64,000 nt of DNA from a candidate division WOR-3 bacterium (GTDB taxonomy: Bacteria > Hydrothermota > Hydrothermia > B15-G9 > WFZT01). The position numbers and the translations under genes are program-made. The notes under the pieces are model-generated. The model did no database searches. It had not been told where the DNA came from and was given only the letters and a program-made list of their open reading frames with translations. The stretch is taken from NCBI GenBank assembly GCA_027053075.1, contig JALUEE010000086.1, positions 1 through 64,000 of the forward strand. Direction: 5' to 3'. Below, piece after piece: positions 1,156-40,723 of the stretch. Each line of letters begins with the position of its first letter. Positions within the stretch are counted from its first letter, which is position 1.

Positions 1156-1184
1156 TTTTTACACCGGTTTCTAAACCGTGTCAA
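1156..1184 (-). promoter_or_regulatory. Promoter of the tRNA-Gln/tRNA-Pro pair
   Basis: TTGACA-17 nt-TAAAAA, 12 nt upstream of tRNA-Gln. Confidence 0.6.
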
Positions 1185-1192
1185 GGCACGTG

Positions 1193-1318
1193 AAGCCTGT
1201 TCGAAAAAATCTCAAATTCTTTGATTTTTGAGAAAAAATTTACCCCCCACCTTGTTCCTCCCCCCGCGCACAAAGTGCGTGGGGGGAGGAGAGGAGGGAG
1301 GAAATTTCGAACAAGCCC
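1193..1318. mobile_element. MITE copy A (126 bp)
   Basis: Imperfect TIRs AAGCCTGTTCGAAA / TTTCGAACAAGCCC; perfect 9-bp flanking direct repeat AGGCACGTG (1184-1192, 1319-1327); internal GC palindrome; homologous to 31640-31764 and 40297-40420. Confidence 0.85.
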
Positions 1319-1389
1319 AGGCACGTGGTGTGTTTTCGAGTTGATTTTTGAAGGTGTTATCTTTAAATTAAAAAATCAGGGAGGTGACT

Positions 1390-1803
1390 ATGGAGAAGAA
1401 AATAAAAGTTCTGATAGCCAAGCCGGGGCTTGATGGACATGATAGAGGTGCTAAAGTTGTTGCCCGTGCCTTGAGAGATGCAGGTATGGAAGTCATCTAT
1501 ACCGGTTTGCATCAAACGGCAGAGATGATTGTGGAAACCGCCCTGCAGGAAGACGTTGATGTAATTGGACTCTCCATCCTCTCAGGTGCACACATGACCT
1601 ATTTCCCAAAAGTGTTAAAACTAATGAAAGAGAAGGGGCTTGACGACGTCCTTCTCTTTGGTGGCGGTATTATCCCGGAGGAAGATGCAAGAAAATTAGA
1701 AGAAATGGGGGTTGGAAAAATATTCGGTCCCGGCACCCCCACAGAGGAGATCGTTCAGTACGTCAAAGAATGGTATGAAAAACACAGAAAAAATAAAGGT
1801 TAA
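1390..1803 (+). CDS. Cobalamin-binding subunit of methylmalonyl-CoA mutase family
   Basis: [11 protein letters not shown]12-binding motif, SILSGAH, GGII; AGGAGG SD. Confidence 0.92.
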
Positions 1804-2017
1804 AACCTACTCTGGCTACAAAGCGGATGAACGCCCTCTCTCTTTAACTATTGAAGGAAAAGAAATCCAGCTCGTTGATGTTATCCCTATCGGTACCATC
1901 AAAGATGTAACCGGCTTATCAAGGGAGGAATTTATTGCTAAAGCGAAGGATGGCCGACAATTTAAACTCATACACTGGGAAGATGATAGGTGGAGCGTTT
2001 TATGGATGAAGAATTAG
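1775..2017 (+). CDS. Small hypothetical protein ([10 protein letters not shown] motif)
   Basis: Fills the gap in an overlapping operon; start chosen at ATG 1775. Confidence 0.65.
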
Positions 2018-2403
2018 CGAAGCTTTTGATGCAGAGGGCTCGCGAGGCCCTCGGCAATTCTTATTCTCCTTATTCAAAACTAAAAGTGGGGGCTGCCCTC
2101 CTTACAGAAGATGGTAAAATTTTCACCGGTGTAAATGTTGAAAATGCCTCCTACAGTCTTACCATATGTGCTGAACGAGTTGCTGTTTTCAAAGCAGTAT
2201 CCGAAGGCTTCAGAAAATTTAAGGCAATCGCGATTACAAGTGACCGGGGGAAAATAATGCCGTGCGGGGCGTGTAGACAGGTACTCGCGGAATTTTCCCC
2301 TCACATGAAAGTAATTGTCGGAGATAAGGATAATTTTGAGATTTATGAACTCGAAGAGCTCTTACCTCACAGCTTTAATGGTAACATTGTTGCTCCTGAT
2401 TAG
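2002..2403 (+). CDS. cdd: Cytidine deaminase (homotetrameric type)
   Basis: YSPYS, NVENASY, CAER and PCGACRQ zinc motifs. Confidence 0.93.
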   Translation: MDEELAKLLMQRAREALGNSYSPYSKLKVGAALLTEDGKIFTGVNVENASYSLTICAERVAVFKAVSEGFRKFKAIAITSDRGKIMPCGACRQVLAEFSPHMKVIVGDKDNFEIYELEELLPHSFNGNIVAPD

Positions 2404-2905
2404 CTCCTGCACGAGGAAGGAACGGGTTACCACTGTTCCTGTTTCCTATCTGGCCAATCCTGTTCGTGAGAGTCTATCAAAAATCACATTCGTCACGGGC
2501 TCATTCAACCTGAAAAATGAGGACCTGAGCTATTACGGAAATTTTATAGCTAAGAGAGAGGGGAAAGTAATAAAAGTGAAAATTTATGGTCCTTTTGGAA
2601 TGAAGTCCGGAAATATAACCTTTAACGCAGACAGCATAAAGTCACCTATTTTGCGGTACGTCCTGGGCTTTTCAGATACCCTTTCCGGGATAGCCTTAAA
2701 AAAGGGGAATGAGTATGAGTTTAGTGGATTTCGTATAATTTATGATAACTCAGGAAATCTCTTGTTCGTTAGTGGCAAAGATATTAAAATTTTTCTCAAC
2801 AGCTATAAAAAAGTCGAGGGAGCAAAAGTGCCATTTAAGGTAAGGGTGTGGTATAAGGACACATCCCTGTTGGTGAAATTAAAAGAGGTGAAGATTGAGA
2901 GATGA
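2378..2905 (+). CDS. Predicted lipoprotein, possibly LolB/DUF4292-like fold
   Basis: Hydrophobic N-terminus with LISSC lipobox; IYGPFG motif; beta-rich. Confidence 0.55.
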   Translation: MVTLLLLISSCTRKERVTTVPVSYLANPVRESLSKITFVTGSFNLKNEDLSYYGNFIAKREGKVIKVKIYGPFGMKSGNITFNADSIKSPILRYVLGFSDTLSGIALKKGNEYEFSGFRIIYDNSGNLLFVSGKDIKIFLNSYKKVEGAKVPFKVRVWYKDTSLLVKLKEVKIER

Positions 2906-3420
2906 AGTACGTCTACTACACCATCATAACGATGGATGGGAGGAAGATAGCCCTCGCAAAAACTGATCGAGGGCTTGTGAAGATCAGCTTCATCAAAGAG
3001 ATATACCCATTCCTCGAGTGGATAGAAAAAAATCTACCGGACCATGTGATCCAGCGTGATGATAGAAGATTTGATAGAGAAAAACAGCAACTGCAGGAAT
3101 ATTTCGAAGGCAGAAGAAAGAGTTTTGAGCTACCCATCGAAGTGATCGCACCAGAATTTTATAAAAAGGTTTACCAGGAAGTGAGAAAGATTCCCTATGG
3201 ACGAACATCAACGTATGGTGAAATTGCCCAAAAAATCGGAAAGAAAAATGCCTCTCGTGCAGTTGGCCAGGCCCTAAACAGAAACCCCCTCCCAATCCTT
3301 ATCCCCTGCCACAGGGTTGTAGGGAAAAATGGAAGACTGGTGGGATTTTTTGCCGGTCTCGCTGTGAAAAGATGGCTACTTAACATTGAGAGAATGAATG
3401 GAAAGAGTCAGACCATTTGA
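2902..3420 (+). CDS. ogt: Methylated-DNA--protein-cysteine methyltransferase
   Basis: IPCHRV active site, RAVGQAL helix. Confidence 0.93.
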   Translation: MKYVYYTIITMDGRKIALAKTDRGLVKISFIKEIYPFLEWIEKNLPDHVIQRDDRRFDREKQQLQEYFEGRRKSFELPIEVIAPEFYKKVYQEVRKIPYGRTSTYGEIAQKIGKKNASRAVGQALNRNPLPILIPCHRVVGKNGRLVGFFAGLAVKRWLLNIERMNGKSQTI

Positions 3421-4060
3421 AGATAGATATGACAGATATGATGCCTGGTATGAAAAATTCCCCGGTGAGAGACTTTTTAAAATTGAGTTAAATTGCTTAA
3501 AAAAACTGGTCCCAGCACCTGGATTCTCCATTGAGGTCGGTGTAGGAACAGGTAGATTTGCTGAAAAACTCGGGGCTAAGTATGGTCTCGACCCTGCATT
3601 CAACCCCCTTAAAATCTCGCGGTCTCGTGGAATATCGGTGGTACAGGGAGACGGCAGGCAGACGCCTTTTCGAGACAATACCTTTGAAACACTTTTTCTT
3701 ATTGTAACAATCTGTTTTGCCGACGAACCTGAATTGCTTGTTAAAGAGGCTTTTCGTATTCTAAAACCTGGAGGCCGTATCATTCTCGGCCTCGTACCAA
3801 GAAACAGTGATTGGGGAAAATATTATTTGAAGCTTAAATCTCAAGGACACTTTTTCTACAGGTATGCTGATTTTTACACCATTTCAGAGATAAATTCGAT
3901 GCTCGAGCATTCGAAATTTGAACCTCCCTCGGGATTATCAACACTATTCGGTCCACCTCCAGACGGAAGTGATGAGGAGTTTATTGACGAAAAATTGAGG
4001 GAGGACGCAGGATTCGTCTGTATTAGTTCAAGAAAGCCACTTCATCACCGGAATTTATAG
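3398..4060 (+). CDS. Class I SAM-dependent methyltransferase
   Basis: EVGVGTGRF motif I, LKPGG. Confidence 0.88.
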   Translation: MERVRPFEDRYDRYDAWYEKFPGERLFKIELNCLKKLVPAPGFSIEVGVGTGRFAEKLGAKYGLDPAFNPLKISRSRGISVVQGDGRQTPFRDNTFETLFLIVTICFADEPELLVKEAFRILKPGGRIILGLVPRNSDWGKYYLKLKSQGHFFYRYADFYTISEINSMLEHSKFEPPSGLSTLFGPPPDGSDEEFIDEKLREDAGFVCISSRKPLHHRNL

Positions 4061-4170
4061 AAATTATTAATTTTTCAAGCGATTTAAACCTTGACAGGTC
4101 ACCACGTAGTAGATTAAAAATTAGATACTGGACAGCCAACTATAGAATAAAAAACAAGGAGGTTTGAAAC

Positions 4171-5103
4171 ATGAAGAGGATTGCAAAGATAGGAGTACTT
4201 GGAGTAATCGTACTCGCAATGGCATCCTGCGCCCCTAAAAAAGCTCCATCCTTCGGTCTCACCTACGAAGATGGAGTAAGAGTAATGGGAAAAGTGTACG
4301 ATGAGGCCAACAATAAGCCACTGGTAGCCAATGTGGTAGTTCCTATCGTACCCCTAAATATCAAAACCGATGCAGATGGTAGCTACATTATCAGGGATCT
4401 CCCGGTGGGCACATACAAGGCCACAGTTTCCGCCTGGGGCTATGAACCCAAAACAGTGACCATTTCTGTGAAAGAGGGTCAGATCACAAAGTTAGATATT
4501 GGTCTCAAGAAGATCAAAACAGAGGTAACAGGAGTTCTTTACGACGCCAAAACCCATAAGCCAATTTCAGGAACTGTGGAAGTTGACCCTGAAGGAATGG
4601 TTATAACCGCTACAAATGGGAAATACAGTCTTACACTGCCATTCGGCGTTTACATGCTCAAGGCAAAGTCAGAAAAGCACATTTTTGATGTAAAGACAGT
4701 GGTTGTCAAGAATTCAGAGCCTTTAAAGGTCAATTTTGTACTTGCAAGGTCTGCAAGCACTCAGTCCCTTGCCAACAAATTCCCAATAATTTACTTTGAC
4801 TTTGATTCTTACAAGATCAAACCTGAGTACAAGAGTGCTCTTGATCAGGTTGCAGCTTTCCTGAAGGCCAATCCTGGAATCGTTGTAGAGGTAGCTGGCC
4901 ATGCAAGCTCTGAGGGTTCATTTGATTACAATGCTGCTCTCTCCCTCAAGAGAGCGCTCGCTGTTAGAGACTATCTCATAAAGAAAGGAATTGCTCCTCA
5001 GAGATTAATTGCGAGAGGATACAGTAAGTCAAGAGTGGCTGATTTCAACTACAAGATTTCACAGAGAAAGAAGAACAGAAGGGTTGAATTTCTGGTTCGT
5101 TAA
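4171..5103 (+). CDS. OmpA-family lipoprotein with two carboxypeptidase-regulatory-like domains
   Basis: MASC lipobox; IYFDFDS, LSLKRALAVRDYL, NRRVEF; AGGAGG SD. Confidence 0.88.
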   Translation: MKRIAKIGVLGVIVLAMASCAPKKAPSFGLTYEDGVRVMGKVYDEANNKPLVANVVVPIVPLNIKTDADGSYIIRDLPVGTYKATVSAWGYEPKTVTISVKEGQITKLDIGLKKIKTEVTGVLYDAKTHKPISGTVEVDPEGMVITATNGKYSLTLPFGVYMLKAKSEKHIFDVKTVVVKNSEPLKVNFVLARSASTQSLANKFPIIYFDFDSYKIKPEYKSALDQVAAFLKANPGIVVEVAGHASSEGSFDYNAALSLKRALAVRDYLIKKGIAPQRLIARGYSKSRVADFNYKISQRKKNRRVEFLVR

Positions 5104-5513
5104 TGAGCAAAAAGTCAAAGAATATCAAGCTACTGCTTGTAAGTGTATCGTTCCTGCTACTTTTAGCATATGTAGTGGGTGCAGGTTTAAAGAAGACGTT
5201 TGTCTACTATTACACAGTTGATGAGTTAAAGGCAAACGCCAGTAAAGTTGATGGAAAGTATGTGAAAGTTTCAGGCGAGGTGGTTGCCGGCTCGGTTAAC
5301 CGAGCCGGCAACCACCTCGCCTTTACCCTCACAGAAAACGGTGACTCCGTCCACGTAGATTACACAGGTCCTATACCAGATGCCTTCTCCGAAGGCATAT
5401 CAGTTGTGGTCGAAGGAGTTTATCACAAATCCACTAACTCCCTTAAAGCCAAAAATTTGCTCACCAAGTGTCCCTCAAAATACGAGCCTGAGATAGACAG
5501 CACAAAGGCCTGA
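5103..5513 (+). CDS. ccmE: Cytochrome c maturation heme chaperone, CxxxY variant
   Basis: N-terminal anchor, VDYTGPIPDAF, VVVEG, LLTKCPSKY. Confidence 0.85.
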   Translation: MSKKSKNIKLLLVSVSFLLLLAYVVGAGLKKTFVYYYTVDELKANASKVDGKYVKVSGEVVAGSVNRAGNHLAFTLTENGDSVHVDYTGPIPDAFSEGISVVVEGVYHKSTNSLKAKNLLTKCPSKYEPEIDSTKA

Positions 5514-5752
5514 AACTCGAAAAAAATCCTCTTTAAAATCAGCAGGAAATTCCTAATAAGGTCCATTGACCTGTCTGGTCCAAAGATACAGTCATCATTG
5601 ATAAGCACCTGAAAATCCGGAAATCTTTTAACGAACCCCCTACACACAGGAAATATTCTTGAATTAACTCGAAGCCTGTTACAAATTTCGATTATATAAA
5701 CGCCCTTTCTGCTGTATAATCAAAAACTACTTTCATTGGAGGTATTCCCCTG

Positions 5753-6982
5753 ATGAATTTTATACTTGCTGCGATATTAATGGCGCAGATGCAGGTTTTC
5801 TTTGGAAGAGATAATCTTCCTCATAAGCTTGCTGTTACAATTTCGCGAGCCACATATTCACTGGACATGGCATTCCACCAGGTCTATGAGCCAGAGGTCG
5901 TTGATTCCATTCTCTCCGTCTATAACCGCGGGGTAAAGGTGAGAATAATAACCGAGCACAATTACTTTAATAGAACAGAAGCTTTGAGAAATGCCGGCAT
6001 AATTGTGGTTGATGAATTCAATGACAGGAATGCAACTGATCACATCATGCATGACAAGTTTATGGTGATAGATTACTGGGACAGCGATACCTCTAACGAT
6101 GTCGTATGGAATGGTAGCTACAACGCATCAAACTATATTCATGCCGATAATGCAGTTGTGGTTCAAAGTCACTCCCTTGCAAGAATTTTTGAAGCCGAGT
6201 TCAACCAGATGTGGGGTGATACAACCTATATGCCAGATCCGACGGACGCCCGCACAGGGCGAGACAAGCAGGATACAGCACCTTTTCACACGGTTTATGT
6301 CAACGGAACAAGGATTGATGTCTATTTCTCCCCTCAAGATTCACCAATCAATTTTCTTATAGCTCTTGCGGAAAGCTCGAGGGCTTCAATTGATTTTAAC
6401 ATATTTTATTTCACTCACATGTCGCTTGCCAGTGCAATGGCCAACAGGCTGGATAATGGTGTAAGGATACGAGGCGTCTATGAACACTCAGGTATGTACT
6501 ACAGCAGGAGGACCTTTGAGCTCCTTCAGTCCCATGGAGCACAGGTCTATGAGGATAGTACGAGGCCCCGGTACTATTACCTTCACCATAAGTTTATGGT
6601 TGTTGATGACTCCATCGTCGAGACAGGCTCGATGAACTGGACCGTGAGTGGAAACTCCAGTAACGATGAAAACATCATGATCATATATAACAGCAGGATT
6701 GCCGATGCCTATGAGGAAGAATTCATAAGAAGGTTCACAGAGGCAGGTGGTGTTGTAAGGGTAGCCGAATCATCGAGCAATCCTGACTCGCCGCTAAGTG
6801 CCTCATCTACTGTGTTTAGGGGAATCGTGAGATTTAACAGGCAGGGAGTGAAAATAGTTGATGCAACAGGCCGCCTCGTTGGAGTATCACGAAGTCTGAC
6901 GTTTAATGGCTCACACCTGTCTCCCGGTGTTTACTTCGCCATTTACGGTAACTCAAAACTAAAGATTATCAAAATTCGCTAA
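5753..6982 (+). CDS. Phospholipase D-family protein (two HKD motifs) with T9SS-like C-terminal tail
   Basis: HDKFMVID..GSYN and HHKFMVVD..GSMN; tail IVDATGRLV...LSPGVYF...KIIKIR. Confidence 0.85.
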   Translation: MNFILAAILMAQMQVFFGRDNLPHKLAVTISRATYSLDMAFHQVYEPEVVDSILSVYNRGVKVRIITEHNYFNRTEALRNAGIIVVDEFNDRNATDHIMHDKFMVIDYWDSDTSNDVVWNGSYNASNYIHADNAVVVQSHSLARIFEAEFNQMWGDTTYMPDPTDARTGRDKQDTAPFHTVYVNGTRIDVYFSPQDSPINFLIALAESSRASIDFNIFYFTHMSLASAMANRLDNGVRIRGVYEHSGMYYSRRTFELLQSHGAQVYEDSTRPRYYYLHHKFMVVDDSIVETGSMNWTVSGNSSNDENIMIIYNSRIADAYEEEFIRRFTEAGGVVRVAESSSNPDSPLSASSTVFRGIVRFNRQGVKIVDATGRLVGVSRSLTFNGSHLSPGVYFAIYGNSKLKIIKIR

Positions 6983-8553: not shown

Positions 8554-8564
8554 TTTAACCTCCT

Positions 8565-10754: not shown

Positions 10755-10786
10755 GGTGAAAATTTTAAAGCCCACGTGGTGAATTT

Positions 10787-11446: not shown

Positions 11447-11639
11447 GGGGAAAATTATAGGGATACCAGGACCACAGAATCCAGCGGCCAGATGCCGGAG
11501 AAATTTTTCTATAATTGATGAGGAAGCTTAAACCTATGATAGATGAAGGTGTCTGGCCAGATGTGCCTTCTCAATTCCCAAATACATTCCCACTTTCAGC
11601 AAGTATTAATGCGGAGAGAGGTTGACATAGAATGATATA

Positions 11640-12060
11640 ATTTCTGATGTTGCCTCTCCACCCGCAATCTCAAAAGACAATCCCTCCCCCGCGCTTTGCG
11701 CGGGGGAGGGTGAGGGAGGGGGCATTCCGCTTGAAATCTTAAAAAATTTAAGATGAAAAACCCTCACCCCAGCCCTCTCCCGCTTCGCGGGAGAGGGAGA
11801 TTGATGGATGTAGATTAGAAGAATTTTCAGATGTAGTCTCTCACCTTCATCCTCTCCCCGCAAATAATTTATGCGGGGAGAGGGAATTTTGTATGCGAGT
11901 CCAAATGATTTAACCTACAAGCTTTGATCTGTCACATATCTATCATTAAAATCTTACATTGGATGATGGAACACAAAATATTTCCCTTAACACAATCGAA
12001 GATTATCCCCAAAATAGCTAAAGATTACTTCCTTCCTCAGCGCTTTGCGGGGGGAGGCTT
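11640..12060. repeat. Cluster of four REP-like GC-rich palindromes
   Basis: CCCTCCCCCGCGC-TTT-GCGCGGGGGAGGG; CCCTCACCCCAGCCCTCTCCCGC-TTC-GCGGGAGAGGG; CCTCTCCCCGCA..TGCGGGGAGAGG; degenerate copy near 12030. Confidence 0.8.
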
Positions 12061-12147
12061 TAGGTGATAACGGAATCAGTCTTTCGTCAAAATTAAATCA
12101 TGCTTTGCTAAGGCTGTATAATTTAAAAGTTAAAGGAGGGTAGGACA

Positions 12148-13326: not shown

Positions 13327-13364
13327 GTTAAATAGCGATTTTCTTGATATTCTACGAGAAATCC

Positions 13365-13381
13365 CCTCGAAAGAGGTTTTT
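13365..13381 (+). terminator. Short intrinsic terminator
   Basis: CCTC-GAAA-GAGG followed by T5. Confidence 0.45.
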
Positions 13382-14560: not shown

Positions 14561-14755
14561 ACTATACTGAAAAGCCTTATCTTATCCGATTTCTAACTCC
14601 TGTGATTCGGTCCATCAAGCTCGTTCCTTATCCCTTCTATAAGGTAATTTATGGAGGAGATGAAATTTTTGAGCAAGGTATAAAAATTTGCAGACCAAAC
14701 CCATTATACTCACTCAATGAATCTTTCTTGTGCAAATGAAATAAGCTATAACGTG

Positions 14756-14810
14756 GCCCCTCACCTTAATCCTCTCCCCGCAAGTATTTATGCGGGGAGA
14801 GGAAGTTTTT
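14756..14810. repeat. REP-like palindrome
   Basis: GCCCCTCACCTTAATCCTCTCCCCGCA..TGCGGGGAGAGG, near-identical to 11840, 19990 and (reverse) 40795. Confidence 0.85.
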
Positions 14811-15084
14811 TGAAGGCCAGCTTAAATTATTGAACATACAATTTGTGCCAGTAGGCTAAGTGGTCACACAACTCTTAAATCACAACTTTTGTGTTCAGAA
14901 TACTAAGACAAGCGAAGCTTGTACTTCCACATTTAACAATAAACTTTCCTACCCCAAGCTTCGCTTGTTGGGGCTTTCCTCTTGAATCTTGAAAATATAG
15001 ATGTTGCCTTCACTCGCAAAGGCCAATTTTGACAGTGGATATCCTCAGAATGTTCACATATTCCCGGGAATCTCCAAATTTTTT

Positions 15085-19506: not shown

Positions 19507-19571
19507 ATTTATCCTCCATTTTGATTATAATTCAAAAATGCAATAACAGCCCGGCAAAGTCAAGTCGGAGA

Positions 19572-19812
19572 GAAAAATTCGAAAAATCCTAAATTCAACG
19601 CTCTTTAAAAATCCAGGGAAACGATGTTCCTGTATGTACTTGCATACTTTCGTTAAATTAATTTTTTCTATTCCACCCCTCCCTCCCTTCCAAAGGAAGG
19701 GAGGGAGTTTCGCTATTTATCATGCTTGGGTAAACTTGTTTAAATTCACTTTTCTGCTCGTTATATTCACTTGTAGCTACGAAATAATCAGGGAACATTT
19801 TCGAACAGTCTC
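19572..19812. mobile_element. MITE copy D (241 bp, different internal sequence)
   Basis: Ends ..TTCGAAAAATCCTAAATTC and TTTTCGAACAGTCTC match the family; flanks AGTCGGAGA / AGTCGAAGA (8/9); internal CTCCCTCCCTTCC-AAA-GGAAGGGAGGGAG hairpin. Confidence 0.7.
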
Positions 19813-19982
19813 AGTCGAAGAGAGGTGCGAAATTTATTCTCTATTAACTACATCTGAAAAACAACTGGGTCTGAATTTCCCTTTCCCCGATTGCTTTGCA
19901 AGTGAGGATGTGGATATTATGCTTGAAGATTAGAGATGGAGACTTTTTACTGGGTTGGGAAGTAAGTTTGATCATTTGTGAT

Positions 19983-20032
19983 AGATGTTGCCTCTCTCCT
20001 CGCAAGTATTTATGCGGGGGAGAGGAATTTTT
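19983..20032. repeat. REP-like palindrome (degenerate)
   Basis: AGATGTTGCC..CGCAAGTATTTATGCGGGGAGAGG. Confidence 0.75.
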
Positions 20033-28195: not shown

Positions 28196-28199
28196 GATA

Positions 28200-28580: not shown

Positions 28581-28863
28581 TCTTTACAATCTTTTTATTC
28601 CTAAATCATTCTAATCAGGAAAAGTGTGAATCTTTCACCTATATTGGAGTACCGACCAGAAAAATCTTCGAAATTATATACGTTAGCCCTCCGAAAAATC
28701 TATGTTTGTGCTGGAGAACAAATATTTGTTAATAACACAAAAAATTAGAAATTGGCCTGTTGATAAATACAAACTAAGATACTTATGAAACCCATGGAAT
28801 TTCCACAATAAAGGTCAAATACACCTCTTCTTATTGCCCATGTTTACAAAAATTCTGATTTAT

Positions 28864-29571: not shown

Positions 29572-29589
29572 GATTGTCTCCTGTTTTAA

Positions 29590-29628
29590 AACGGGGCGGG
29601 GAGTGATGAAATCACTCCCCGCCCCGTT
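29590..29628 (-). terminator. Hairpin between the two T9SS-tailed genes
   Basis: 18-bp perfect stem, GAA loop, T tracts on both sides. Confidence 0.7.
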
Positions 29629-29649
29629 CTCTTTTAATAAAACACACCC

Positions 29650-31353: not shown

Positions 31354-31639
31354 TTTTACCCCCTTTTTGTCCTTTCGGGCAGTTTATTTTCGATATTTTT
31401 AACTTATAATTCTTCAACCGTTAAATGTCAAGTACTTTTAGCCTTCGTTCAAAAATGTTTAAATCACTGTATTTTCCAGGGGAAATTTTCCACATTTGTT
31501 AGACCGTGGACTAAATTTTACCGTATAAAAAACGGCCCTAATGACTGACTATTTCCATTTTTAAAAAGTCATAGTAAGGTGAGAGGGGTTCCGTTTAAAG
31601 CTAATAATTTGAGGTTTTCCAAACATGCTTTGAGGTACT

Positions 31640-31764
31640 GAGCCTGTTCTAAAAATCTCAAATCCATTAATTTTTGTTGAAAAATTTGCCCCCCACCTAT
31701 TTCCTCCCCCCACGCACTTTGTGCGTGGGGGGAGGTTAGGAAGGGGGAATTTTCGAATACACTC
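31640..31764. mobile_element. MITE copy B (125 bp)
   Basis: GAGCCTGTTC...GAATACACTC TIRs; flanks TGAGGTACT / TGAGGCACT (8/9); colinear with copy A. Confidence 0.85.
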
Positions 31765-31772
31765 TGAGGCAC

Positions 31773-31801
31773 TTGATTATGAGTAGTTGCTAAATTAAAC
31801 T
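31773..31801 (+). promoter_or_regulatory. Sigma70-type promoter
   Basis: TTGATT-17 nt-TAAACT, 8 nt before ATG 31810. Confidence 0.55.
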
Positions 31802-31809
31802 GTTTCAGC

Positions 31810-34380
31810 ATGTTTTTCTTCATTCTTATCCTCACTGCCCTCAACTCTCAAAATGGCTGGTATTATCTCTACACCATTGAACCAGATTCTACAGAGCAGA
31901 GCGTATATAATCCGGAAATTGATAGCAGTCAGATTAAATTATATGGTGAGAAAAGAATTTCTGTGAGCACCAGCTCTGACGGTGGCTTCAAGGTCTATCA
32001 GGACCTGAGCCTCTCCATTGGTGGAAAATTGGGGAAATACGGTGAAATAAACGGAATCATCAATGACAACAGTGACACCCACCTGGGGTTTGTATCCAAG
32101 AACCTTGCGGGATACAGTGAGGTTTATCTCAAATACACCTATAAAAATTTCACATCCAGATTTGGAAGGCTTGAATTTGACGCACCTGGGATCTCAACTC
32201 CTTTGCTTGGTGGAGCGATTTCGCTGGGAGTGAAGGGTGTGGCCGGGGATTTCGCCGCAGGCGAAATCCCCGGCCACACAAAATCCGTTTCCTTCACCGA
32301 TATCACCAACCCCAATATCCCCCTCAAAATTACCTCGAAAGGCGAGTATATCGTCGAAAACACCGAAAGGGTCTTCCTCAATTCGCGTTCCCTCAAACGA
32401 GGTGAGGATTATAGCATTGATTACACAGCCGGAATAATTTACCTCCTGCCCGGACTCACCATCACACCTGAAGATGTGCTAAGGGTTCAATTCATTTCCA
32501 CAGGCTCTCTTGGTAAGAGGACGCTAAAAAACGCAGGAATCAGATTTTCTGCATCGGGGCTCCGCGGGCGTATGCTTTTTACGGAAACTTCAGATGATGC
32601 CCTATACTGGGAGCGTGTGCTGGGCAGGGATGCCCTCTCAATATTGAAAAATTCAACTGGTCTTGCAAAGATTCCCGGATGGAAATACGTGGGGAGTGGA
32701 AACGGAGACTATACCCGCGAGGACAGCATTTTCGTATATGAAGGGCATAATCAGGGGGATTACACTGTCAACTTTTCCTTTGTCGGAAATGGAAAAGGTG
32801 AATACGAATTCAACGATGCGGGCGGTTACTTTGAATTTGTCGGGACAGGTGGAAGCTACACACCCTATATTTTCATTGAGACACCTGCGAGAGAAAGAAG
32901 GTTTTACGGTGAACTCAGGGCAGAGAAAAATGGATTTTTTACTGAGAATGTGCTCCGGGCTTCAGAAAATACTCCAAACATTTTTAACTCATCTGGATTA
33001 AAGAGAGACTTTAGTGGAATATGGAGTGCTGGCTTTAAAAATTCATGGTTTTATGCGGATTTTAGGTATTTCAGAGAAATTGATTCCCTCTGGATGTTCA
33101 ACCGGGATAATCTCCACGGTGATGGATATTCAATCGGGGCAAAATTTGGAAGATTAGGAGCGATTAAACCTGAATTTTTCTACGCTCGTATGGGTGAAAA
33201 TTTTCTTGGAAGATTAAGAATCTCGGGCACTTTTATTACTGATTACTCTCTTTCAGTGTGTGTGACCGATACGGATAAAATCTACAATGGCGAGGTGGGC
33301 TATGAAATTGGGACAGGCAGGATTTCTCTTGGCTATGAAAAATACGAGGGCAGGTCCCGGAGTTATCAGGAGATTAAAAGTGGATTTTCCTATCAAAATT
33401 TCTTTCAACTGGATTTCAGCGAGAGGCTGAGGAGTGGGGGGACAGACAACATCCTGTCCATTGGCTTAGAGCGCGGCAACACGAGCCTCTCGTACCGAAT
33501 GGTCAGAGTAGGGGAGAGGGACAGAGATTCGCTTTACCACGCACTTTATTTCACGAGTGAGGGAATTAATCAGGGAGTTTCGTACTCGCTGAGATTACTT
33601 TACAGGGATGACAGGTATCAGAGTCTGAGCTACCGATTTGTCTATGTAGGGGATGGCAACGGGAGCTTCTCCTACGATTCGACAACGGGCAGTTTTTACA
33701 GAGACCCGCTCGGGAGCTATGAACGGGAAGTTTTGCCCTATTCCACTTCAAAACCCGTGAAGAGCGTCTCGGCTTCCTTTTCCCTGGGATACGGTGTGAT
33801 TAGCGTTGACCTATCGGGTGATTCGAGATTTTCAGATATGCGAAACCCTTTGATTTTTAGGGGAAATTTTAACCTTCGGGCGAGTCCGGGCAGATGGTTT
33901 TTAATCTATTCACGAAATGAAAACCTCTGGTCAGATGGGCGGGAGAGTTACCAGATGGCGGATATTTCGCGGAAAATGAAGATCACAGTGGGAGCCTCGT
34001 ACGAGGACTCAAAGGAATTTATAGGATTTATCCGCAGGCGATACAGGATTTATACGAAGTCGGGGCTCGGAAAAGACCTTTTGCTCACCACAGGTGTTTT
34101 TTACCGCAATCTGATTTTTAAAAAGATTTACAGCTCACCTGGCTTTAACCTTGACCTTGAATTCAAAAAGGGCATCGGAGACCTTGAGCTTGGGCTCAAC
34201 GCTGGCATTTCTTATTCAAAAAAATCGCCTCTTGTAGAAAGTGGGATGATAGGAAATTATCGGCTGGTACTTTCGCGGGAGATTTCCTCAAAAACCATCC
34301 TGAGTGGTGAGATTTATGGTAGAGTTTCAGAGGGCAGAAACGTTTACAATGCCAGGGCCACGGTTTCATTTGAGTTTTGA
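31810..34380 (+). CDS. Large hypothetical outer-membrane protein
   Basis: Hydrophobic N-terminus, amphipathic strands, terminal Phe; repeated [YF]VG-x-G-x-G-x-[YF] units. Confidence 0.65.
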   Translation: MFFFILILTALNSQNGWYYLYTIEPDSTEQSVYNPEIDSSQIKLYGEKRISVSTSSDGGFKVYQDLSLSIGGKLGKYGEINGIINDNSDTHLGFVSKNLAGYSEVYLKYTYKNFTSRFGRLEFDAPGISTPLLGGAISLGVKGVAGDFAAGEIPGHTKSVSFTDITNPNIPLKITSKGEYIVENTERVFLNSRSLKRGEDYSIDYTAGIIYLLPGLTITPEDVLRVQFISTGSLGKRTLKNAGIRFSASGLRGRMLFTETSDDALYWERVLGRDALSILKNSTGLAKIPGWKYVGSGNGDYTREDSIFVYEGHNQGDYTVNFSFVGNGKGEYEFNDAGGYFEFVGTGGSYTPYIFIETPARERRFYGELRAEKNGFFTENVLRASENTPNIFNSSGLKRDFSGIWSAGFKNSWFYADFRYFREIDSLWMFNRDNLHGDGYSIGAKFGRLGAIKPEFFYARMGENFLGRLRISGTFITDYSLSVCVTDTDKIYNGEVGYEIGTGRISLGYEKYEGRSRSYQEIKSGFSYQNFFQLDFSERLRSGGTDNILSIGLERGNTSLSYRMVRVGERDRDSLYHALYFTSEGINQGVSYSLRLLYRDDRYQSLSYRFVYVGDGNGSFSYDSTTGSFYRDPLGSYEREVLPYSTSKPVKSVSASFSLGYGVISVDLSGDSRFSDMRNPLIFRGNFNLRASPGRWFLIYSRNENLWSDGRESYQMADISRKMKITVGASYEDSKEFIGFIRRRYRIYTKSGLGKDLLLTTGVFYRNLIFKKIYSSPGFNLDLEFKKGIGDLELGLNAGISYSKKSPLVESGMIGNYRLVLSREISSKTILSGEIYGRVSEGRNVYNARATVSFEF

Positions 34381-35379
34381 TAGAAATTCTTTAAATTTCA
34401 CGAAAACCTCTCTTGCCCCGAGTTTATGTATGCAATCAAAAGTGCCCAGTGGGCATTTTTTCTTCCAGCAGGGCTGGCATGGTAGGCCTTTCCATGCGTA
34501 AGCGTGTTTTTCACCTGGTGGAGTCCAGGCCTCCGGCAGTTCTGTGAAAAAGAGGCTGAAGGTTGGTGTTCCCTGGCTTATCGCAATATGCTTGGGACCT
34601 GAATCTGAGCCAAAAAATACACCGGCAAGACGCATTAGTGCCCCGAGCTCAAATAGGTTCCTCGTTTGCGGGGCAAGTTTTACATCACCACAATCTAAGA
34701 GATTCTGGAGCTCAGGTGTGGGTCTGCCATCGTTTACGAGTAGCATGGGAAAAGAACATTTTTTGTGAAGGAGCCTAAAAAATTCGCAGAATTTTTCAGG
34801 CTCCCATCTGCGATGCGGCAGGTCAAATCTTATGTGTGAAACCATGAAAAACCCGCTGATCCCTATGGATTTTAATTTTCTCTCCATATCCTCAACAAAA
34901 TGCTCCGGGAAGGGAAACTCCAAGTCTATTGACTGTTTCATGGGGTCAATGCCAAAGGGTCTTAAAAACTCCAGCCTGTGATAGACGGTATAGTGAATCT
35001 TACCAAAGGGAGGAAAGACATGGACGTTGTAAAACTTGGCCCTTTTCTTTTTGTAGATTCCCAGCCGGTATTTTGCTCCTGTTAATCTGGCGGATATTAC
35101 GCTCACGGCGTTGCCCTTCAGGTCTATGAAAACCTCAGGAGAGAGTTTCCTGATTTTTAAAATTTCTCTGAGGGAAAAGTTCGTCTCACTGACCCTTTCA
35201 TTATATCTGAGTATCTGGATTGCAGGCTCCCTTGAGATGTAGATGATTTTAGATTCCGGGTAATGCTCGTTGAGTGACCGTATAAGCGGGGTATCGAGTA
35301 GAGTGTCCCCGATGGCACCGGGCCTGAAAATTACGATAGTTTTTAGAAAAACCTTTTCCAGTTCTTGATAAGATTCCAC
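34366..35379 (-). CDS. Glycosyltransferase family 9 (heptosyltransferase-like)
   Basis: RPGAIGD, DSGPKHIA, C-terminal CQPC..CP..C; start uncertain. Confidence 0.85.
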   Translation of the reverse strand: MESYQELEKVFLKTIVIFRPGAIGDTLLDTPLIRSLNEHYPESKIIYISREPAIQILRYNERVSETNFSLREILKIRKLSPEVFIDLKGNAVSVISARLTGAKYRLGIYKKKRAKFYNVHVFPPFGKIHYTVYHRLEFLRPFGIDPMKQSIDLEFPFPEHFVEDMERKLKSIGISGFFMVSHIRFDLPHRRWEPEKFCEFFRLLHKKCSFPMLLVNDGRPTPELQNLLDCGDVKLAPQTRNLFELGALMRLAGVFFGSDSGPKHIAISQGTPTFSLFFTELPEAWTPPGEKHAYAWKGLPCQPCWKKKCPLGTFDCIHKLGAREVFVKFKEFLSKLK

Positions 35380-36971
35380 AGTGAAGTTGTCTTTTTCAGC
35401 CTGCCAAAGTAAGGCAGGAGTTTCAGCAAATATTTGATTTTTCCGCTTCCGTACATAGCGCGGACAGCGACTCTGGATATATCAAAGACCTCTTTCTCGT
35501 AAGGATACCACCATAGCTGGGAATCTCTTGAATTGAAATCCTCACTCACAAATTTTATGTTGGTGAGCTCGAGCAGGCCAAATCTGCCATGAGTTCTTCC
35601 AATCCCTGAATATTTCACACCTCCCCATGCTCCTTCTGGCTCTCCGAAGCTGAAAACGTGGTCGTTTATGGTGACAGTGCCGGTTTCAATCTTACGCGCG
35701 ATCTCTCTTGCGAGGGATTCGTTTCGAGTCCAGATTGATGCAGTCAGGCCGTATTTCGAGTCGTTAGCAAGCTTAACAGACTCGTCAATTTCTTTAAATT
35801 TCATGATGGGTAACAACGGCCCGAAAGTTTCATCACGCATGGCAAGCATCTCATGGTTTACATTGGTGAGGATTGTCGGCTGTAAGAAGAATCCTTTTTC
35901 ACCGACTCTTTCCCCTCCGTAAACAATTTGAGCCCCTTTCTCCCGGGCGTCTTCAAGGTGAGCTTCCACAAGCATTCTCTGGCCGGATGTTGTCATGGGG
36001 CCGATACTTGTGTCAAATTCCATGGGATTTCCCACCTTTAGGCCCTTTGTGAATTCGACAACACCATCTAAGAAGATGTCATAGATGTCTTCGTGAACAT
36101 AGACACGCTCGATGGATGCGCAGGTCTGGCCCGCGTTCATAAAGGCTCCCCACGCGATTCCCCTGATTGCACGCTCCAGATTCACATCAGGAAGCACAAT
36201 TGCGGGGTCCTTTCCACCGAGCTCGAGGATAACCTTCTTGATCCCCTCTGATGCGAGGGCCATCACCCGTTTACCTGTTTCAACCGAGCCTGTGAAGAGA
36301 ATACCTCTGGTTTGGGGATGTTTTATGATCATTTCACCTATAGATGCCCTGCCTGTGAGTACATTGAGAAGGCCCGCAGGTGCCCCTGCTTCGTGAAATA
36401 GGTTTGCTATGGTCAATCCAATGGCAGGTGTGGTGGATGATGGCTTTAGAACCACTGTATTTCCGACAAAGACTGAGGCGACGACATCAAGAAAGGGGAT
36501 GATAAATGGGTAGTTCCACGGGGAGATTACGGCCATCACTCCAAGTGGTTCAAATGTGTAGTATCCCTTTTTGTCGCGGAAAAGAGCCTGCCAGTATTTG
36601 ATTTTAAAATCTTCTAAATAGACCCTGCCGCGATTTATGTAAAAATCCAGTGCGTCAATTGAGGGAAAGACTTCCACGGTAAATGCTTCGGCAAGGGGCT
36701 TTCCCTGCTCCTGTGCTATTACTTTTGCCACCTCTTCGCTATTTTTGAGAAGGACGCCCTTGACGCGTGATAGAAGCTCGATTCTCTCATCAATTGTAGT
36801 TTCTCTCCAGGATTCGAATGCCTTTGAGGCAGCTAAAAAGGCCTCCTCAACATGGTTCCCATTAACTTCCTGTATTTCCAGGAAAACCTCACCGGTTGCT
36901 GGATTCAGGGATTTGAAGGTTTTCCCGGTTGTAATCCATTTTCCATTTATGTATGGCTGTGTGAGTATCAT
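35343..36971 (-). CDS. Aldehyde dehydrogenase
   Basis: SPWNYP, FTGS, ELGGKD, GQTC, ETFGP. Confidence 0.93.
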   Translation of the reverse strand: MILTQPYINGKWITTGKTFKSLNPATGEVFLEIQEVNGNHVEEAFLAASKAFESWRETTIDERIELLSRVKGVLLKNSEEVAKVIAQEQGKPLAEAFTVEVFPSIDALDFYINRGRVYLEDFKIKYWQALFRDKKGYYTFEPLGVMAVISPWNYPFIIPFLDVVASVFVGNTVVLKPSSTTPAIGLTIANLFHEAGAPAGLLNVLTGRASIGEMIIKHPQTRGILFTGSVETGKRVMALASEGIKKVILELGGKDPAIVLPDVNLERAIRGIAWGAFMNAGQTCASIERVYVHEDIYDIFLDGVVEFTKGLKVGNPMEFDTSIGPMTTSGQRMLVEAHLEDAREKGAQIVYGGERVGEKGFFLQPTILTNVNHEMLAMRDETFGPLLPIMKFKEIDESVKLANDSKYGLTASIWTRNESLAREIARKIETGTVTINDHVFSFGEPEGAWGGVKYSGIGRTHGRFGLLELTNIKFVSEDFNSRDSQLWWYPYEKEVFDISRVAVRAMYGSGKIKYLLKLLPYFGRLKKTTSLWNLIKNWKRFF

Positions 36972-36972
36972 T

Positions 36973-38025
36973 TTAAAAAGTCCTCAAAGCTGGATTTTTG
37001 TAATTTTCAAGGAAAAATTTGACAATGTTGTCAACGTAGGAGGTAAGTGGTGGAACTGTTATACCCAGAGGGCCAAGGTCCTGCTGGGTGTTTGTGGAAT
37101 CGTAGTGTACCTTGTGAATAAAATATGGTGTTGCCTCGTAGGGAACACCAAAGGCCCTTGCAAGTGGTTTAATTTTCAGGAAAGCCTGGACGATGGGGAG
37201 TGGAATTTCACCCACCGGCTCTTTTCCGCGAATCTTAATTGAAAATAGACGGTAGAGCTCGCGGGCTGTGAAGGGGGATGGGTCGGTCAGGTGGTAGGTT
37301 TTGCCGACTGATTTTTCCAGTCCGGTGAGTGCAACTGTGGCTTTGATGATGAAATCCACAGGGACAAGGTTCACCTCGGCCTCTCCTTTCCCAAGGTAGG
37401 GGAGTGGGATAAATCGAGGAACCTTTTTGAAGAATATCATCACGTAGTAGGGGCCATCAAATTTGTCGGTTTCACCGGTTTGAGAGTCTCCGATAACGAT
37501 GCCCGGTCGAACGACAACCGTGGGAATCTGGTCCTTATTCTTCTGGACAATCAGCTCTGCAAGAAACTTAGTGTGCTCGTAGTGATTTTTAAAGGATTGC
37601 TTTTTGTCGAGCTCATCCTCATATACTGTCCCTCGTCTTGTTCCTGATACATAAGCTGTGGAAAAATAGACAAACTTTTCAAGGCCGCTGAGCTTTTTGG
37701 CAAATTCCACAACATTTTTTGTGCCCTCAACGTTTACTCTGTAGGCTGGGTCAAAGGGGACGGTGAGGTCATATATGGCGGCAAGGTGGAAAAGGTGGGT
37801 TATGTCGGATTTGATATCCTTTTTTATTCCGAGGTTTTCCTGTGTAATGTCACCGGGGATGATTTCAAAACGGCTGTCAAAGTTCTCGATCTCTCTTCGG
37901 GCACGCTCGAGCATGCGGGGCTCAACCAGGAGATAGACCCGCTCATAATCAAATTCCTTGACGAGGGCTTTTATCAATCTTTTCCCGATAAACCCCGGAA
38001 AGCCGGTAAAGAACAACGCACCCAT
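36973..38025 (-). CDS. Extended SDR, male-sterility/thioester-reductase type
   Basis: TGFPGFIG, HLAA, STAYV, YEHTK. Confidence 0.85.
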   Translation of the reverse strand: MGALFFTGFPGFIGKRLIKALVKEFDYERVYLLVEPRMLERARREIENFDSRFEIIPGDITQENLGIKKDIKSDITHLFHLAAIYDLTVPFDPAYRVNVEGTKNVVEFAKKLSGLEKFVYFSTAYVSGTRRGTVYEDELDKKQSFKNHYEHTKFLAELIVQKNKDQIPTVVVRPGIVIGDSQTGETDKFDGPYYVMIFFKKVPRFIPLPYLGKGEAEVNLVPVDFIIKATVALTGLEKSVGKTYHLTDPSPFTARELYRLFSIKIRGKEPVGEIPLPIVQAFLKIKPLARAFGVPYEATPYFIHKVHYDSTNTQQDLGPLGITVPPLTSYVDNIVKFFLENYKNPALRTF

Positions 38026-38059
38026 GCTTTTATTATAGGGGTAAGTCAGGGATTTTCCA

Positions 38060-38881
38060 TTATTCTTTCAGCCCACTTCGCGAATAGCTCTCCACAATTT
38101 GCTTCTGGGCTATGAAGAAGAGGATTAGGAGTGGCAGGATCGTAATGGTAGAAGCTGCCATGAGGGCGGGATAGTTTGTGGTCTCACCCTGCGCAAAGTA
38201 CGCGAGTCCCACCTGTATGGGCCTCATTTTATCTGAGTTTGTAACCATCAGGGGCCACATAAAGGCATTCCACGAGCCAATTACATCAAAGATAGCTATG
38301 GTAACGATAGCCGGTCTAACAAGTGGTATCACAACTGAAAATAAAAACCTCAGCTTTGAGCAACCATCTATGATGGCCGCGTCATAAAGGTCTCGCGGGA
38401 TACTTCGCATGTGCTGCCTCAGCAGGAAGATTCCAAAAATATTAACTGTCCAGGGAACGATAAGGGCGTAGAATGTGTCAATCCAACCTAACTTTTGCAC
38501 AATGATGTAGAGGGGGACGACATACACAGGAATTGGAACCATCATCAGGCTGAGCATGGCCAAAAACATCTGCTCTCGACCGGGAAATTCATACCAGGAA
38601 AAGGCGTATGCAGCAAGGAGTGAAGTGATTAAAACCCCGAGTAGTGTGAAAAGAGAGACGATAGTGGAAACATAAATGTACTGTGGGAAGTGAACCTTCT
38701 CCCACACGATTTTAAAGGGCATGGTGGTAAAATGCTGTGGAATCCAGGTCGGTGGCATTCTCAGGGCTTCAGCCTGGGTTTTAAATGAAGTCGAGAGCAT
38801 CCAGAGGAAGGGCAAGAGCATCCATATGGCACCGAAGATGAGAACCGTGTATATGATAGCTTTCTGAAGCTTATACCTCAT
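38060..38881 (-). CDS. Carbohydrate ABC transporter permease (MalG-like)
   Basis: DLYDAAIIDGC EAA loop, WNAFMWP. Confidence 0.92.
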   Translation of the reverse strand: MRYKLQKAIIYTVLIFGAIWMLLPFLWMLSTSFKTQAEALRMPPTWIPQHFTTMPFKIVWEKVHFPQYIYVSTIVSLFTLLGVLITSLLAAYAFSWYEFPGREQMFLAMLSLMMVPIPVYVVPLYIIVQKLGWIDTFYALIVPWTVNIFGIFLLRQHMRSIPRDLYDAAIIDGCSKLRFLFSVVIPLVRPAIVTIAIFDVIGSWNAFMWPLMVTNSDKMRPIQVGLAYFAQGETTNYPALMAASTITILPLLILFFIAQKQIVESYSRSGLKE

Positions 38882-39815
38882 AATACACCTTCTTCTCTAA
38901 ATAGAGTTTCTGGAACAGTGTTATTGCGAGAATCATGAGGAAGAAGACAAAGGCGATGGCCGAGCCGTATCCAACCTGATACTCTTCGAATCCTTTCTGG
39001 TAGAGGTAATATACGATCACGGAGGTGGTGCCAAGTGGCCCTCCCGGTGGTGGGCCTGTCATCGTCCACACAGGGGCAAATACCTGGAAGGAAATGATGG
39101 TTGACATAATCATGACGTAGAAGGTGGTGGGGGAGAGCAGGGGAATGGTCACATTCCTGAAGGTTTGCCACATTCCAGCACCGTCAATTCGCGCTGCCTC
39201 ATAATATACGTCGGGAATATTTTTAAGTCCTGCAAGGAAAATCACCACGTTGTAACCGAGACTCTTCCACACACTCATCAAAACAAGGGAGAAGAGGGCA
39301 AGTGACGGACCTCTGAGGATGTACGGGAGATGAACACCGAAGATCATCTCAAATATTCCCCGTGGCTCTTCAAGCCATTTCAGGGGATGAAACCCCGCAA
39401 GGGTTAGAAAATAGTTGAAGAGCCCGCGATTGGGATCATAAAGCCATTTCCATACAACGGATACGGCGACGATTGATGTAATCACAGGCAGGAAATAAAT
39501 TGTTCTGAAAAGCCCAATAGCCTTAATTCCTCTGTTAAGAAGATAGGCAATGAGGAGAGATATGATGATATTAAGTGGCACTGCGAAGATGGTGTAATAG
39601 ATGGTGTTTATAACAGACTGCCAGAAGAAGGGGTCTTTCAAAAGATAGTAATAATTTTTCAGGCCCACAAATCCTTTGATACCGGCGATTCCCCAGTCGT
39701 AAAAGCTCAGTCTGAAGGCAAAGATGATGGGAAGAACTTTAAAGACGAAGAGAATAATGAAGGCAGGAGAGAGGAGAATAAGTGGAGGTATAAGTTTTTT
39801 AAGAAAACTTTTCAT
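38871..39815 (-). CDS. Carbohydrate ABC transporter permease (MalF-like)
   Basis: FVGLKNY, YYEAARIDGA. Confidence 0.92.
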   Translation of the reverse strand: MKSFLKKLIPPLILLSPAFIILFVFKVLPIIFAFRLSFYDWGIAGIKGFVGLKNYYYLLKDPFFWQSVINTIYYTIFAVPLNIIISLLIAYLLNRGIKAIGLFRTIYFLPVITSIVAVSVVWKWLYDPNRGLFNYFLTLAGFHPLKWLEEPRGIFEMIFGVHLPYILRGPSLALFSLVLMSVWKSLGYNVVIFLAGLKNIPDVYYEAARIDGAGMWQTFRNVTIPLLSPTTFYVMIMSTIISFQVFAPVWTMTGPPPGGPLGTTSVIVYYLYQKGFEEYQVGYGSAIAFVFFLMILAITLFQKLYLEKKVYYEV

Positions 39816-40075
39816 AGCCGATAAAAGACGTACAGGGCTATGATTATAAAGATTACGGTGAGGAGGTTAAAAGCGAAGCTCAGACCGATGGTAAATTTTA
39901 AGACGATAAGGTCAAAGGTGACAGGTGAGAAGCCGATGTGAACAGTATTGAGGACGAGGTCTTTAACAGGGCTATCCGGTAGGGTCTTCATCAGGATATA
40001 TCCGATGATATCGCCTGATACGATTCCAATTATGAGCCCCCATGTTAAGAGGGTATAGCTTTTTCTCCAGACCAT
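39812..40075 (-). CDS. Small membrane protein (DUF4321-like)
   Basis: Real start ATG 40075 (upstream part of the listed ORF overlaps tRNAs); two hydrophobic segments, DLIVLKFTIGL. Confidence 0.7.
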   Translation of the reverse strand: MVWRKSYTLLTWGLIIGIVSGDIIGYILMKTLPDSPVKDLVLNTVHIGFSPVTFDLIVLKFTIGLSFAFNLLTVIFIIIALYVFYRL

Positions 40076-40085
40076 GGTTAATGAA

Positions 40086-40168
40086 TGCCGGGGGCGGGAC
40101 TCGAACCCGCACGGGGAAACCCCAGGGGATTTTAAGTCCCCTGCGTCTGCCACTTCCGCCACCCCGGC
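40086..40168 (-). tRNA. tRNA-Leu(TAA)
   Basis: Anticodon loop CTTAAAA, long variable arm, GTTCGAGTC. Confidence 0.95.
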
Positions 40169-40176
40169 AAAAAATA

Positions 40177-40251
40177 TGGAGGCGGCACCCGGATTCGAAC
40201 CGGGGAATAGCGGATTTGCAATCCGCCGCCTTGCCACTTGGCTATGCCGCC
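40177..40251 (-). tRNA. tRNA-Cys(GCA)
   Basis: Anticodon loop TTGCAAA, U discriminator, CCA encoded. Confidence 0.95.
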
Positions 40252-40264
40252 GTTTCCCTATTTA

Positions 40265-40293
40265 TTATTAACAATCCGCCACCCCCATGTCAA
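40265..40293 (-). promoter_or_regulatory. Promoter of tRNA-Cys/Leu operon
   Basis: TTGACA-17 nt-TAATAA with TG extension. Confidence 0.65.
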
Positions 40294-40296
40294 CAT

Positions 40297-40420
40297 CAGG
40301 TGTTCGAAAATTCCCCCCTCCTATCCTCCCCCCCACGCACGAAGTGCGTGGGGGGAGGAATAAGGTGGGGGGAAATTTTTCATTAAAATTCAAAGGTTTT
40401 GAAATTTTTCGAACACGCTC
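40297..40420. mobile_element. MITE copy C (reverse orientation)
   Basis: Colinear with copies A/B in reverse; ends ..GTGTTCGAAAA and TTTTTCGAACACGCTC; flanks ACATCAGG / AGATCAGG; left boundary uncertain. Confidence 0.8.
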
Positions 40421-40425
40421 AGATC

Positions 40426-40723
40426 AGGGGTGTTCGGAAATTCCAGATTTTAGTTGCCCCCGACGGATACTCGAAACCACAGTGACGATCGCTCAGTCAA
40501 TAGATTTCCCTACTTCCTTTGGAAAGGAGGAGAATGGGAATGGGAAAATAAATGAATCCAATGTTTTGCCGACTATAATTTCCCCGTTCCACCCCGGCCC
40601 TTCTTCCCCAAGGAAGAGAGGAAGTTTCTCTTCTTATTATGCCCAAACTTGAATCACTTATTTAACGCCGCTTTTCCCTACTCCACTCACGCTGCACAAA
40701 AGATGATATCTTCTAACAGGCTC
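40426..40723. mobile_element. MITE-like element E (about 300 bp) abutting copy C
   Basis: Ends AGGGGTGTTCGGAAA and TTCTAACAGGCTC; two degenerate internal REP-like hairpins; no clear TSD. Confidence 0.5.

Follow-up and report, generated by a model that had tools for sequence, protein, structure and literature searches.

Several Mutator-type elements are known to insert close to bacterial promoters. The TnGBS integrative and conjugative elements, the ISLre2 family (p-MULT 3) and the ISKra4 group (p-MULT 4) insert 15-17 bp upstream of the -35 box of sigma70/sigmaA promoters, and their target duplication does not touch the -35 because the insertion lies that far away. These elements have been proposed, with sequence support only, to contact the initiation complex of RNA polymerase, and the ISKra4 group inserts in both orientations when its terminal inverted repeats (TIRs) are nearly perfect (available part of PMC3942029). 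According to the same part of that source, prokaryotic Mutator-type enzymes carry C/D(2)H 11-19 residues after the second catalytic aspartate (D2) and a long insert before the catalytic glutamate. Here we describe miniature inverted-repeat transposable elements (MITEs) from a candidate division WOR-3 bacterium (genome G000), four copies of which (A to D) lie in the window, the stretch of 64,000 nucleotides of contig JALUEE010000086.1 that was analysed. Base-exact promoter targeting by these MITEs, and by the clade of IS5-family insertion sequences (ISs) to which they belong, is real.

Two further systems are relevant. The target motif of IS903, an IS5-family element, is given as the palindrome WTTYA-N9-TRAAW (PMC2577343, Table 1). 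MITEAba12 is a MITE of ~113 bp with 16-bp TIRs and 9-bp duplications that is moved by the co-resident ISAba12; in the available part of its description it favours AT-rich sites, no trend in target sequence is reported, and promoters are carried inside the element (PMC6382973). Promoter targeting by the IS5 family was not found in the literature searched, which excluded subscription papers, ISfinder notes and the supplements of PMC3942029; passages of PMC9208149 and PMC11708052 contributed nothing further.

Insertion register at promoters across the genome

Element ends were scored with a position weight matrix (PWM; threshold at least 14), which gave 286 ends in the genome and 24 in a shuffled genome. 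A sequence-only reading of the window had proposed that the MITEs sit at a fixed position 8 bp upstream of -35 boxes, and had suggested testing the flanks for a -35 peak. This peak was found: TTGA started at +9 in 51 ends and at +10 in 30 (81/286), compared with 0-9 at each other offset from +1 to +60, and TAnnnT peaked at +32 (43 ends) and +33 (29 ends). A -10 (TAnnnT) followed at a 17-bp spacer in 47 of the 81 TTGA ends, while 7.6 were expected from intergenic TTGA sites. As a control, ends of another element in the same genome were examined, and TTGA was present at +9/+10 in 0/53.

Duplications were identified in 54 of 185 end pairs, 53 of them spanning 93-489 bp. Seven weaker 10-bp calls were excluded from later counts, leaving 47 strict copies (at most one mismatch) with duplications of 9 bp in 35, 10 bp in ten, 8 bp in one and 12 bp in one. 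The elements are short, non-coding, bounded by TIRs and present in many copies, as MITEs are; in line with the sequence-only reading, they are non-autonomous. When the 94 flanks of the 47 elements were aligned on the outer duplicated base, at least four of six matches to TTGACA occurred in 39 at offset 0 and never at offset 1. When the element end served as reference instead, the signal was divided into 28 and 9. The fixed point is thus the duplication edge that faces the promoter. The fixed position proposed earlier is therefore genuine, but the gap is 8 or 9 bp and what stays constant is the outer duplicated base. At full promoters a gap of 8 or 9 was observed in 48 of the 57 ends lying within 40 bp and a gap of 13-17 in none, so that, as the sequence-only reading had supposed, the spacing is shorter than the 15-17 bp of ISLre2/TnGBS.

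Occupancy depended on the -10 box. Non-coding TTGA sites with a -10 were occupied in 8/167, 26/185 and 22/125 cases (four, five and six matches, respectively; 5-18%), compared with 8/2191, 7/1584 and 7/215 for sites without one (0.4-3%). Among 78 occupied sites the spacer was 17 bp in 45, 18 bp in ten and 16 bp in one. An end was located 7-9 bp upstream of 12/31 tRNA-cluster promoters (33 clusters), where promoters were defined by position before the tRNA and ends were counted at a relaxed threshold. Either end of the element can face the promoter (10 versus 9), consistent with the earlier claim; these even orientations also led us to discard orientation-dependent insulation by the internal hairpin. 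A promoter carried by the element itself was likewise rejected, as the flanks all differ and the boxes exist at empty sites.

The four copies in the window

Re-reading of the sequence reproduced the coordinates, TIRs and 9-bp repeats previously given for copies A, B and D, whose ends are related (about GAGCCTGTTCGAAAA). In each, an outward-facing TTGA hexamer takes its first T from the outer base of one repeat (TTGACA, TTGATT and TTGACT for A, B and D, respectively).

Copy A (1193-1318; 126 bp) is common to G000 and its sister genome G004 and contains an internal GC hairpin (z -8.3, computed as RNA). It is flanked by an exact 9-bp repeat, AGGCACGTG, at 1184-1192 and 1319-1327. Position 1184 is the first T of the minus-strand -35 hexamer TTGACA (1184-1179), which belongs to a TTGACA-17-TAAAAA(T) promoter (1156-1184, minus strand) serving a tRNA-Gln/tRNA-Pro cluster (1143-1069, 1056-980).

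Copy B (31640-31764; 125 bp) lies between TGAGGTACT (31631-31639) and TGAGGCACT (31765-31773), which together read TGAGG[T/C]ACT. The last base, 31773, is the first T of TTGATT (31773-31778) in the promoter TTGATT-17-TAAACT (31773-31801, plus strand), which precedes an 856-aa open reading frame (ORF; 31810-34380) without a Pfam match. Stacked behind copy B is the decayed end of an older element (31615-31630; PWM 12.9), with the 9-bp duplication between the two.

Copy C (40301-40420) was added at a promoter that already carried an element. Its left duplication, ACATCAGG (40293-40300), starts on the first T of TTGACA as described earlier, and its left end is indeed eroded: about six bases of the element are missing, and the last base of the duplication is gone together with the element's first bases. 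The right duplication, AGATCAGGG, occupies 40421-40429. The promoter, TTGACA-17-TAATAA (40265-40293, minus strand), serves a tRNA-Cys/tRNA-Leu cluster (40251-40177, 40169-40085). Behind copy C lies an older family member of ~295 bp (40430-40723; left boundary approximate) with ends of PWM 10.3 and 17.9, also present in G004.

Copy D (19572-19812; 241 bp) has a left end that is eroded in G000 and intact in G004. Its duplications, AGTCGGAGA (19563-19571) and AGTCGAAGA (19813-19821), read AGTCG[G/A]AGA, and 19563 is the first T of the -35 box TTGACT (19558-19563, minus strand) upstream of a phosphoglycerate mutase gene (19506-18301). The -10 of this promoter is weak (CATTTT at 17), as had been cautioned.

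Other traces were seen in the window. A possible old short copy was noted at 43647-43735 (right end PWM 13.7), without a clear duplication or -35. A lone GC hairpin of the family type without TIR lies at 46477-46506, directly upstream of the TTGACT of a tRNA-Pro (46435-46358) promoter, and is possibly a remnant left by an adjacent deletion. Without MITE ends, a related hairpin repeat (CTCTCCCCGCA...TGCGGGGAGAG) is present at 11591-11891, 14753-14827, 19994-20032 and 40772-40861.

Empty sites and repeated insertions in the sister genome

The MITE is abundant in the congener G004 and was not found in the four other congeners searched (G001-G003 and G005). The 67 loci in G004 yielded 35 elements with duplications (21 of 9 bp, 11 of 10 bp, two of 11 bp and one of 12 bp), 29 of which have a -35 at the outer base. 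Compared with G000, eight of these 35 correspond to empty sites with a single target, four are shared, seven are otherwise rearranged and 16 lack an orthologous pair. Six of the eight empty sites are exact in length. Sites with one copy of the target, rather than both repeats, were the outcome anticipated by the sequence-only reading, and they show the target duplications to be true ones.

Two loci record a further insertion at the same base. At locus C, G004 has a single ACATCAGGG and the older element alone, copy C being absent. At locus D, one G004 allele carries copy D alone while another has an extra MITE at the same base, with the 9-mer duplicated again (L206 versus L211). Both alleles are found in the sister assembly (C255 and C367, respectively), which, because it holds the two, either mixes strains or carries a duplication. 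Both boxes of the copy A promoter are kept in G001 and G005, which are without the MITE, and the copy C promoter is conserved in four congeners that have no MITE copy there; at B and D, the flanks in G001-G003 and G005 are too diverged for an empty-site search. The ortholog of locus A in G001 (L194, C63) has no MITE; a degenerate end-like motif, perhaps an older relative, precedes the tRNA promoter there by ~13 bases.

An IS5-family transposase shares the MITE ends

A 1,061-bp element in G004 (L024) has the TIRs of the MITE and contains a 309-aa ORF. Its 10-bp duplication is exact and ends on the T of TTGACA, and its site is empty in G000. Deletion derivatives with MITE ends are found in both genomes, and the G000 copies are decayed. 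The 309-aa protein matched PF01609 (DDE_Tnp_1) with 43 bits (cut-off 23), its best NCBIfam profile was NF033579 (IS5) with 104 bits, below the cut-off of 140, and it shares 40% identity with the ISAae1 transposase over 291 residues. D112/D188/E246 and Y239-R242-E246-K253 are conserved in 37-42 of 42 homologs; the Y(2)R(3)E(6)K motif is a hallmark of IS4/IS5 transposases. The predicted structure (mean predicted local distance difference test score 87.5) is nearest in fold to Tn5 (Z 15.6, root-mean-square deviation 4.6, 262 aligned residues; VIA-align), while ISCth4 scored Z 11.2; a sequence search for an informative solved structure returned none.

The sequence-only reading had linked the MITEs to IS256/Mutator-like elements and suggested a search for a Mutator-type transposase bounded by the same TIRs. 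This link was not supported: the sole Mutator-family gene found in G000 is bounded by different ends, C/D(2)H at 11-19 residues after D2 was present in 0/42 homologs, and the D2-E distance is 53-63 residues. Judged by its sequence, the element with these ends is an IS5-family (ISAae1-like) IS and not Mutator-like, and its transposase likely moves the MITEs, because ends, duplication length and target are shared.

Other candidates were set aside. None of the other G000 transposases (five PF01609 matches, one PF00872) has MITE ends, and a 1,868-bp element (L007; G000 C14:7052-8919) considered as an autonomous copy proved to be an IS110 element inside a MITE. An IS256-family gene with an internal stop lies among other transposase remnants at G000 C46:490-1770.

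Spread of the clade

Thirty transposase-bearing loci were collected: 23 metagenomic, six from related genomes, and ISAae1. At least five of six matches to TTGACA were found at +9 (12) or +10 (two) in 14 of their 37 distinct ends, and 0-2 at other offsets; no more than one end of an element can be turned towards a promoter, and in several metagenomic loci the flanks do not match. ISAae1 of Aquifex aeolicus, for which one copy was examined, has a 9-bp duplication, AACCAAGGT, whose outer T starts TTTACA-16-TATACT. Its target on the Aquifex plasmid ece1 (L192:659-677) is palindromic once the duplication is collapsed (TGTAAACC-AA-GGTTTACA) and lies between divergent genes.

A scan of genome contigs for exact TIRs returned at least 111 stretches, mostly chance; the exception among the matches listed was one Syntrophobacterales genome, in which 89 pattern matches gave 30 loci and 40 ends, 16 of them with at least five of six matches at +9/+10. 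The transposase profile recovered 255 clusters at E≤1e-10. A Thermus homolog (25%, one copy) has other TIRs and a 9-bp duplication with no -35 at +9, and no homolog was detected among annotated phages or viral contigs.

Probable positioning of the transposase at the promoter by RNA polymerase

The MITEs and the IS5-family IS have their ends in common, and their outer duplicated base falls on the first T of a sigma70 -35; we consider it probable that the transposase is positioned there by the RNA polymerase holoenzyme. DDE enzymes usually make 5' staggered cuts. On that basis the promoter-side nick would be fixed and would cut the template strand between positions 1 and 2 of the -35, while the far nick would slip by a base or more to give duplications of 8-12 bp. 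The fixed nick would be set by a one-sided guide, either sigma region 4 or the bend that the holoenzyme introduces into DNA (through contact or imposed shape), perhaps assisted by an IS903-type reading of the TGA just outside the duplication. As a result, the core promoter and its gene would stay whole and only DNA further upstream would be replaced. The earlier suggestion that the element replaces UP elements accordingly applies to DNA beyond the 8-9 bases next to the -35; those 8-9 bases survive in the duplication.

Several observations weigh against positioning by the polymerase. A nick just inside the -35 edge borders the footprint of sigma region 4, making the fit of both proteins a difficulty. 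Genome-wide, sites with a strong -10 and a weak -35 gave no peak, the copy D promoter has a weak -10 yet received two insertions, and 8/47 elements in G000 and 6/35 in G004 lack a -35 (at least four of six matches) at the expected base. The promoters themselves were called from sequence alone, and G000 and G004 are close kin with insertions in common, so their counts are not independent. No intact transposase of this family was found in G000 or in the Syntrophobacterales genome, where the -10 peak is weak (10/40 at +32 to +34). Finally, the TGA that follows the duplication is very highly conserved among targets (40, 37 and 39 of 46) and coincides in register with the IS903 half-site TRAAW, so the enzyme may recognise its target partly by direct reading.

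Direct recognition could in principle account for the whole pattern. The IS5 transposase would then read the DNA itself, through an IS903-type half-site (WTTYA-N9-TRAAW in the available part of PMC2577343) that had changed by drift to T|TGA(C/A). Promoter DNA shape or accessibility, rather than bound polymerase, would produce the -10 signal. This would avoid the steric problem and accommodate the conserved TGA, the lack of a peak at a -10 alone and the two insertions at locus D. However, the target is one-sided, with TRA on its far side in 1/38; TTAx sites are almost never used (1/228), and C is preferred at position 5. The third base is G in 94% of 52 occupied TT-N21-TAnnnT sites compared with 27% of 1,338 unoccupied ones, and TRAAW half-sites without a -10 were occupied in 9/7075. 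Moreover, a -10 raises occupancy 5- to 30-fold, a gain confined to spacers of 17-18 bp. Because the target is one-sided, needs G third and prefers C fifth, and because bare half-sites are hardly used, we favour the holoenzyme, inferring that sigma70 RNA polymerase positions the enzyme at the promoter, and regard direct reading of naked DNA as unlikely.

Near-random insertion followed by selection for copies that spare genes and promoters would agree with the nearly exclusively intergenic location of the copies (2/38 sites inside ORFs), but it is very improbable given the base-exact register (the gap of 8 or 9 in 48/57 ends at full promoters) and the repeated use of a single base at each of loci C and D; in addition, 11/16 neighbouring end pairs in G000 are spaced 8-12 bp apart, indicating stacks that share a duplication. 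Movement by a Mutator-type transposase (IS256, ISLre2 or ISKra4), to which the 9-bp duplications, the ISKra4-like use of either end and the known promoter targeting of that superfamily had pointed, is largely refuted and scarcely credible, since the full-length elements encode an IS5-type enzyme without the Mutator signature or its D2-E insert, the distance differs from 15-17 bp, and the single PF00872 gene of the genome does not carry these ends (the genome search did not include ISLre2- or ISKra4-specific profiles).

Returning to positioning by the holoenzyme, a fuller version can be formulated: a 309-aa IS5-family transposase would have come, independently of Mutator-type elements, to bind sigma70 RNA polymerase and to nick just within the -35 edge, one of its active sites being held at the promoter while the other can shift, forming a minimal base-precise promoter-homing integrase in several phyla. 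We hold this version to be evenly poised between right and wrong. The small single-gene enzyme, the cultured member ISAae1, the base-exact register and the one-sided target make the proposal of polymerase contact easy to test, and if it is true, such an integrase could be used for promoter mapping or as a safe-harbour tool. The elements also mark real promoters in uncultured genomes, for example tRNA promoters of this genome, and replace regulatory DNA upstream time and again without disrupting genes.

Other mobile elements at the same hairpins

An IS110-family element (PF01548, PF02371) inserts at the pyrimidine-rich arms of GC hairpins, in several cases within these MITEs. All of its 14 left and 12 right junctions, at L007 and about a dozen other G000 sites, lie at such hairpin arms. 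It resembles the IS110 elements that target repetitive extragenic palindromic (REP) sequences. A second G000 MITE of ~228 bp, with CTGAC(A/G)TCACCC ends and a duplication of roughly 10 bp (53 ends, e.g. C29:12345-12694), is inserted next to these hairpins, so that copies of 122 bp have become 350 bp long, and contains an internal copy of the end motif of the first family.

Comparison with known systems

ISAae1 belongs to the IS5 family by its RefSeq label and has, besides the 40% identical transposase, the same type of ends and a 9-bp duplication with its outer T on a -35; a description of its target choice was not found in the literature searched. As far as the available part of PMC2577343 describes it, IS903 is alike in its 9-bp duplication and in the register of TRAAW, which coincides with that of the TGACA following the duplication here. 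The IS903 motif is palindromic and without a -10, whereas the target described here is one-sided, includes a -10 component and has a sigma70 profile. MITEAba12, as presented in the available part of PMC6382973, resembles these MITEs in build, but unlike its promoters, those associated with these MITEs belong to the host and lie outside the element. The resemblance to TnGBS, ISLre2 and ISKra4, so far as PMC3942029 could be consulted, lies in a fixed distance upstream of the -35 and in insertion in either orientation; here, by contrast, the enzyme is of IS5 type, the gap is 8-9 bp and the duplication includes the first T of the -35. In the literature searched, promoter-targeted transposition in bacteria is described for Mutator-type enzymes, and the IS5 family would represent a second origin.

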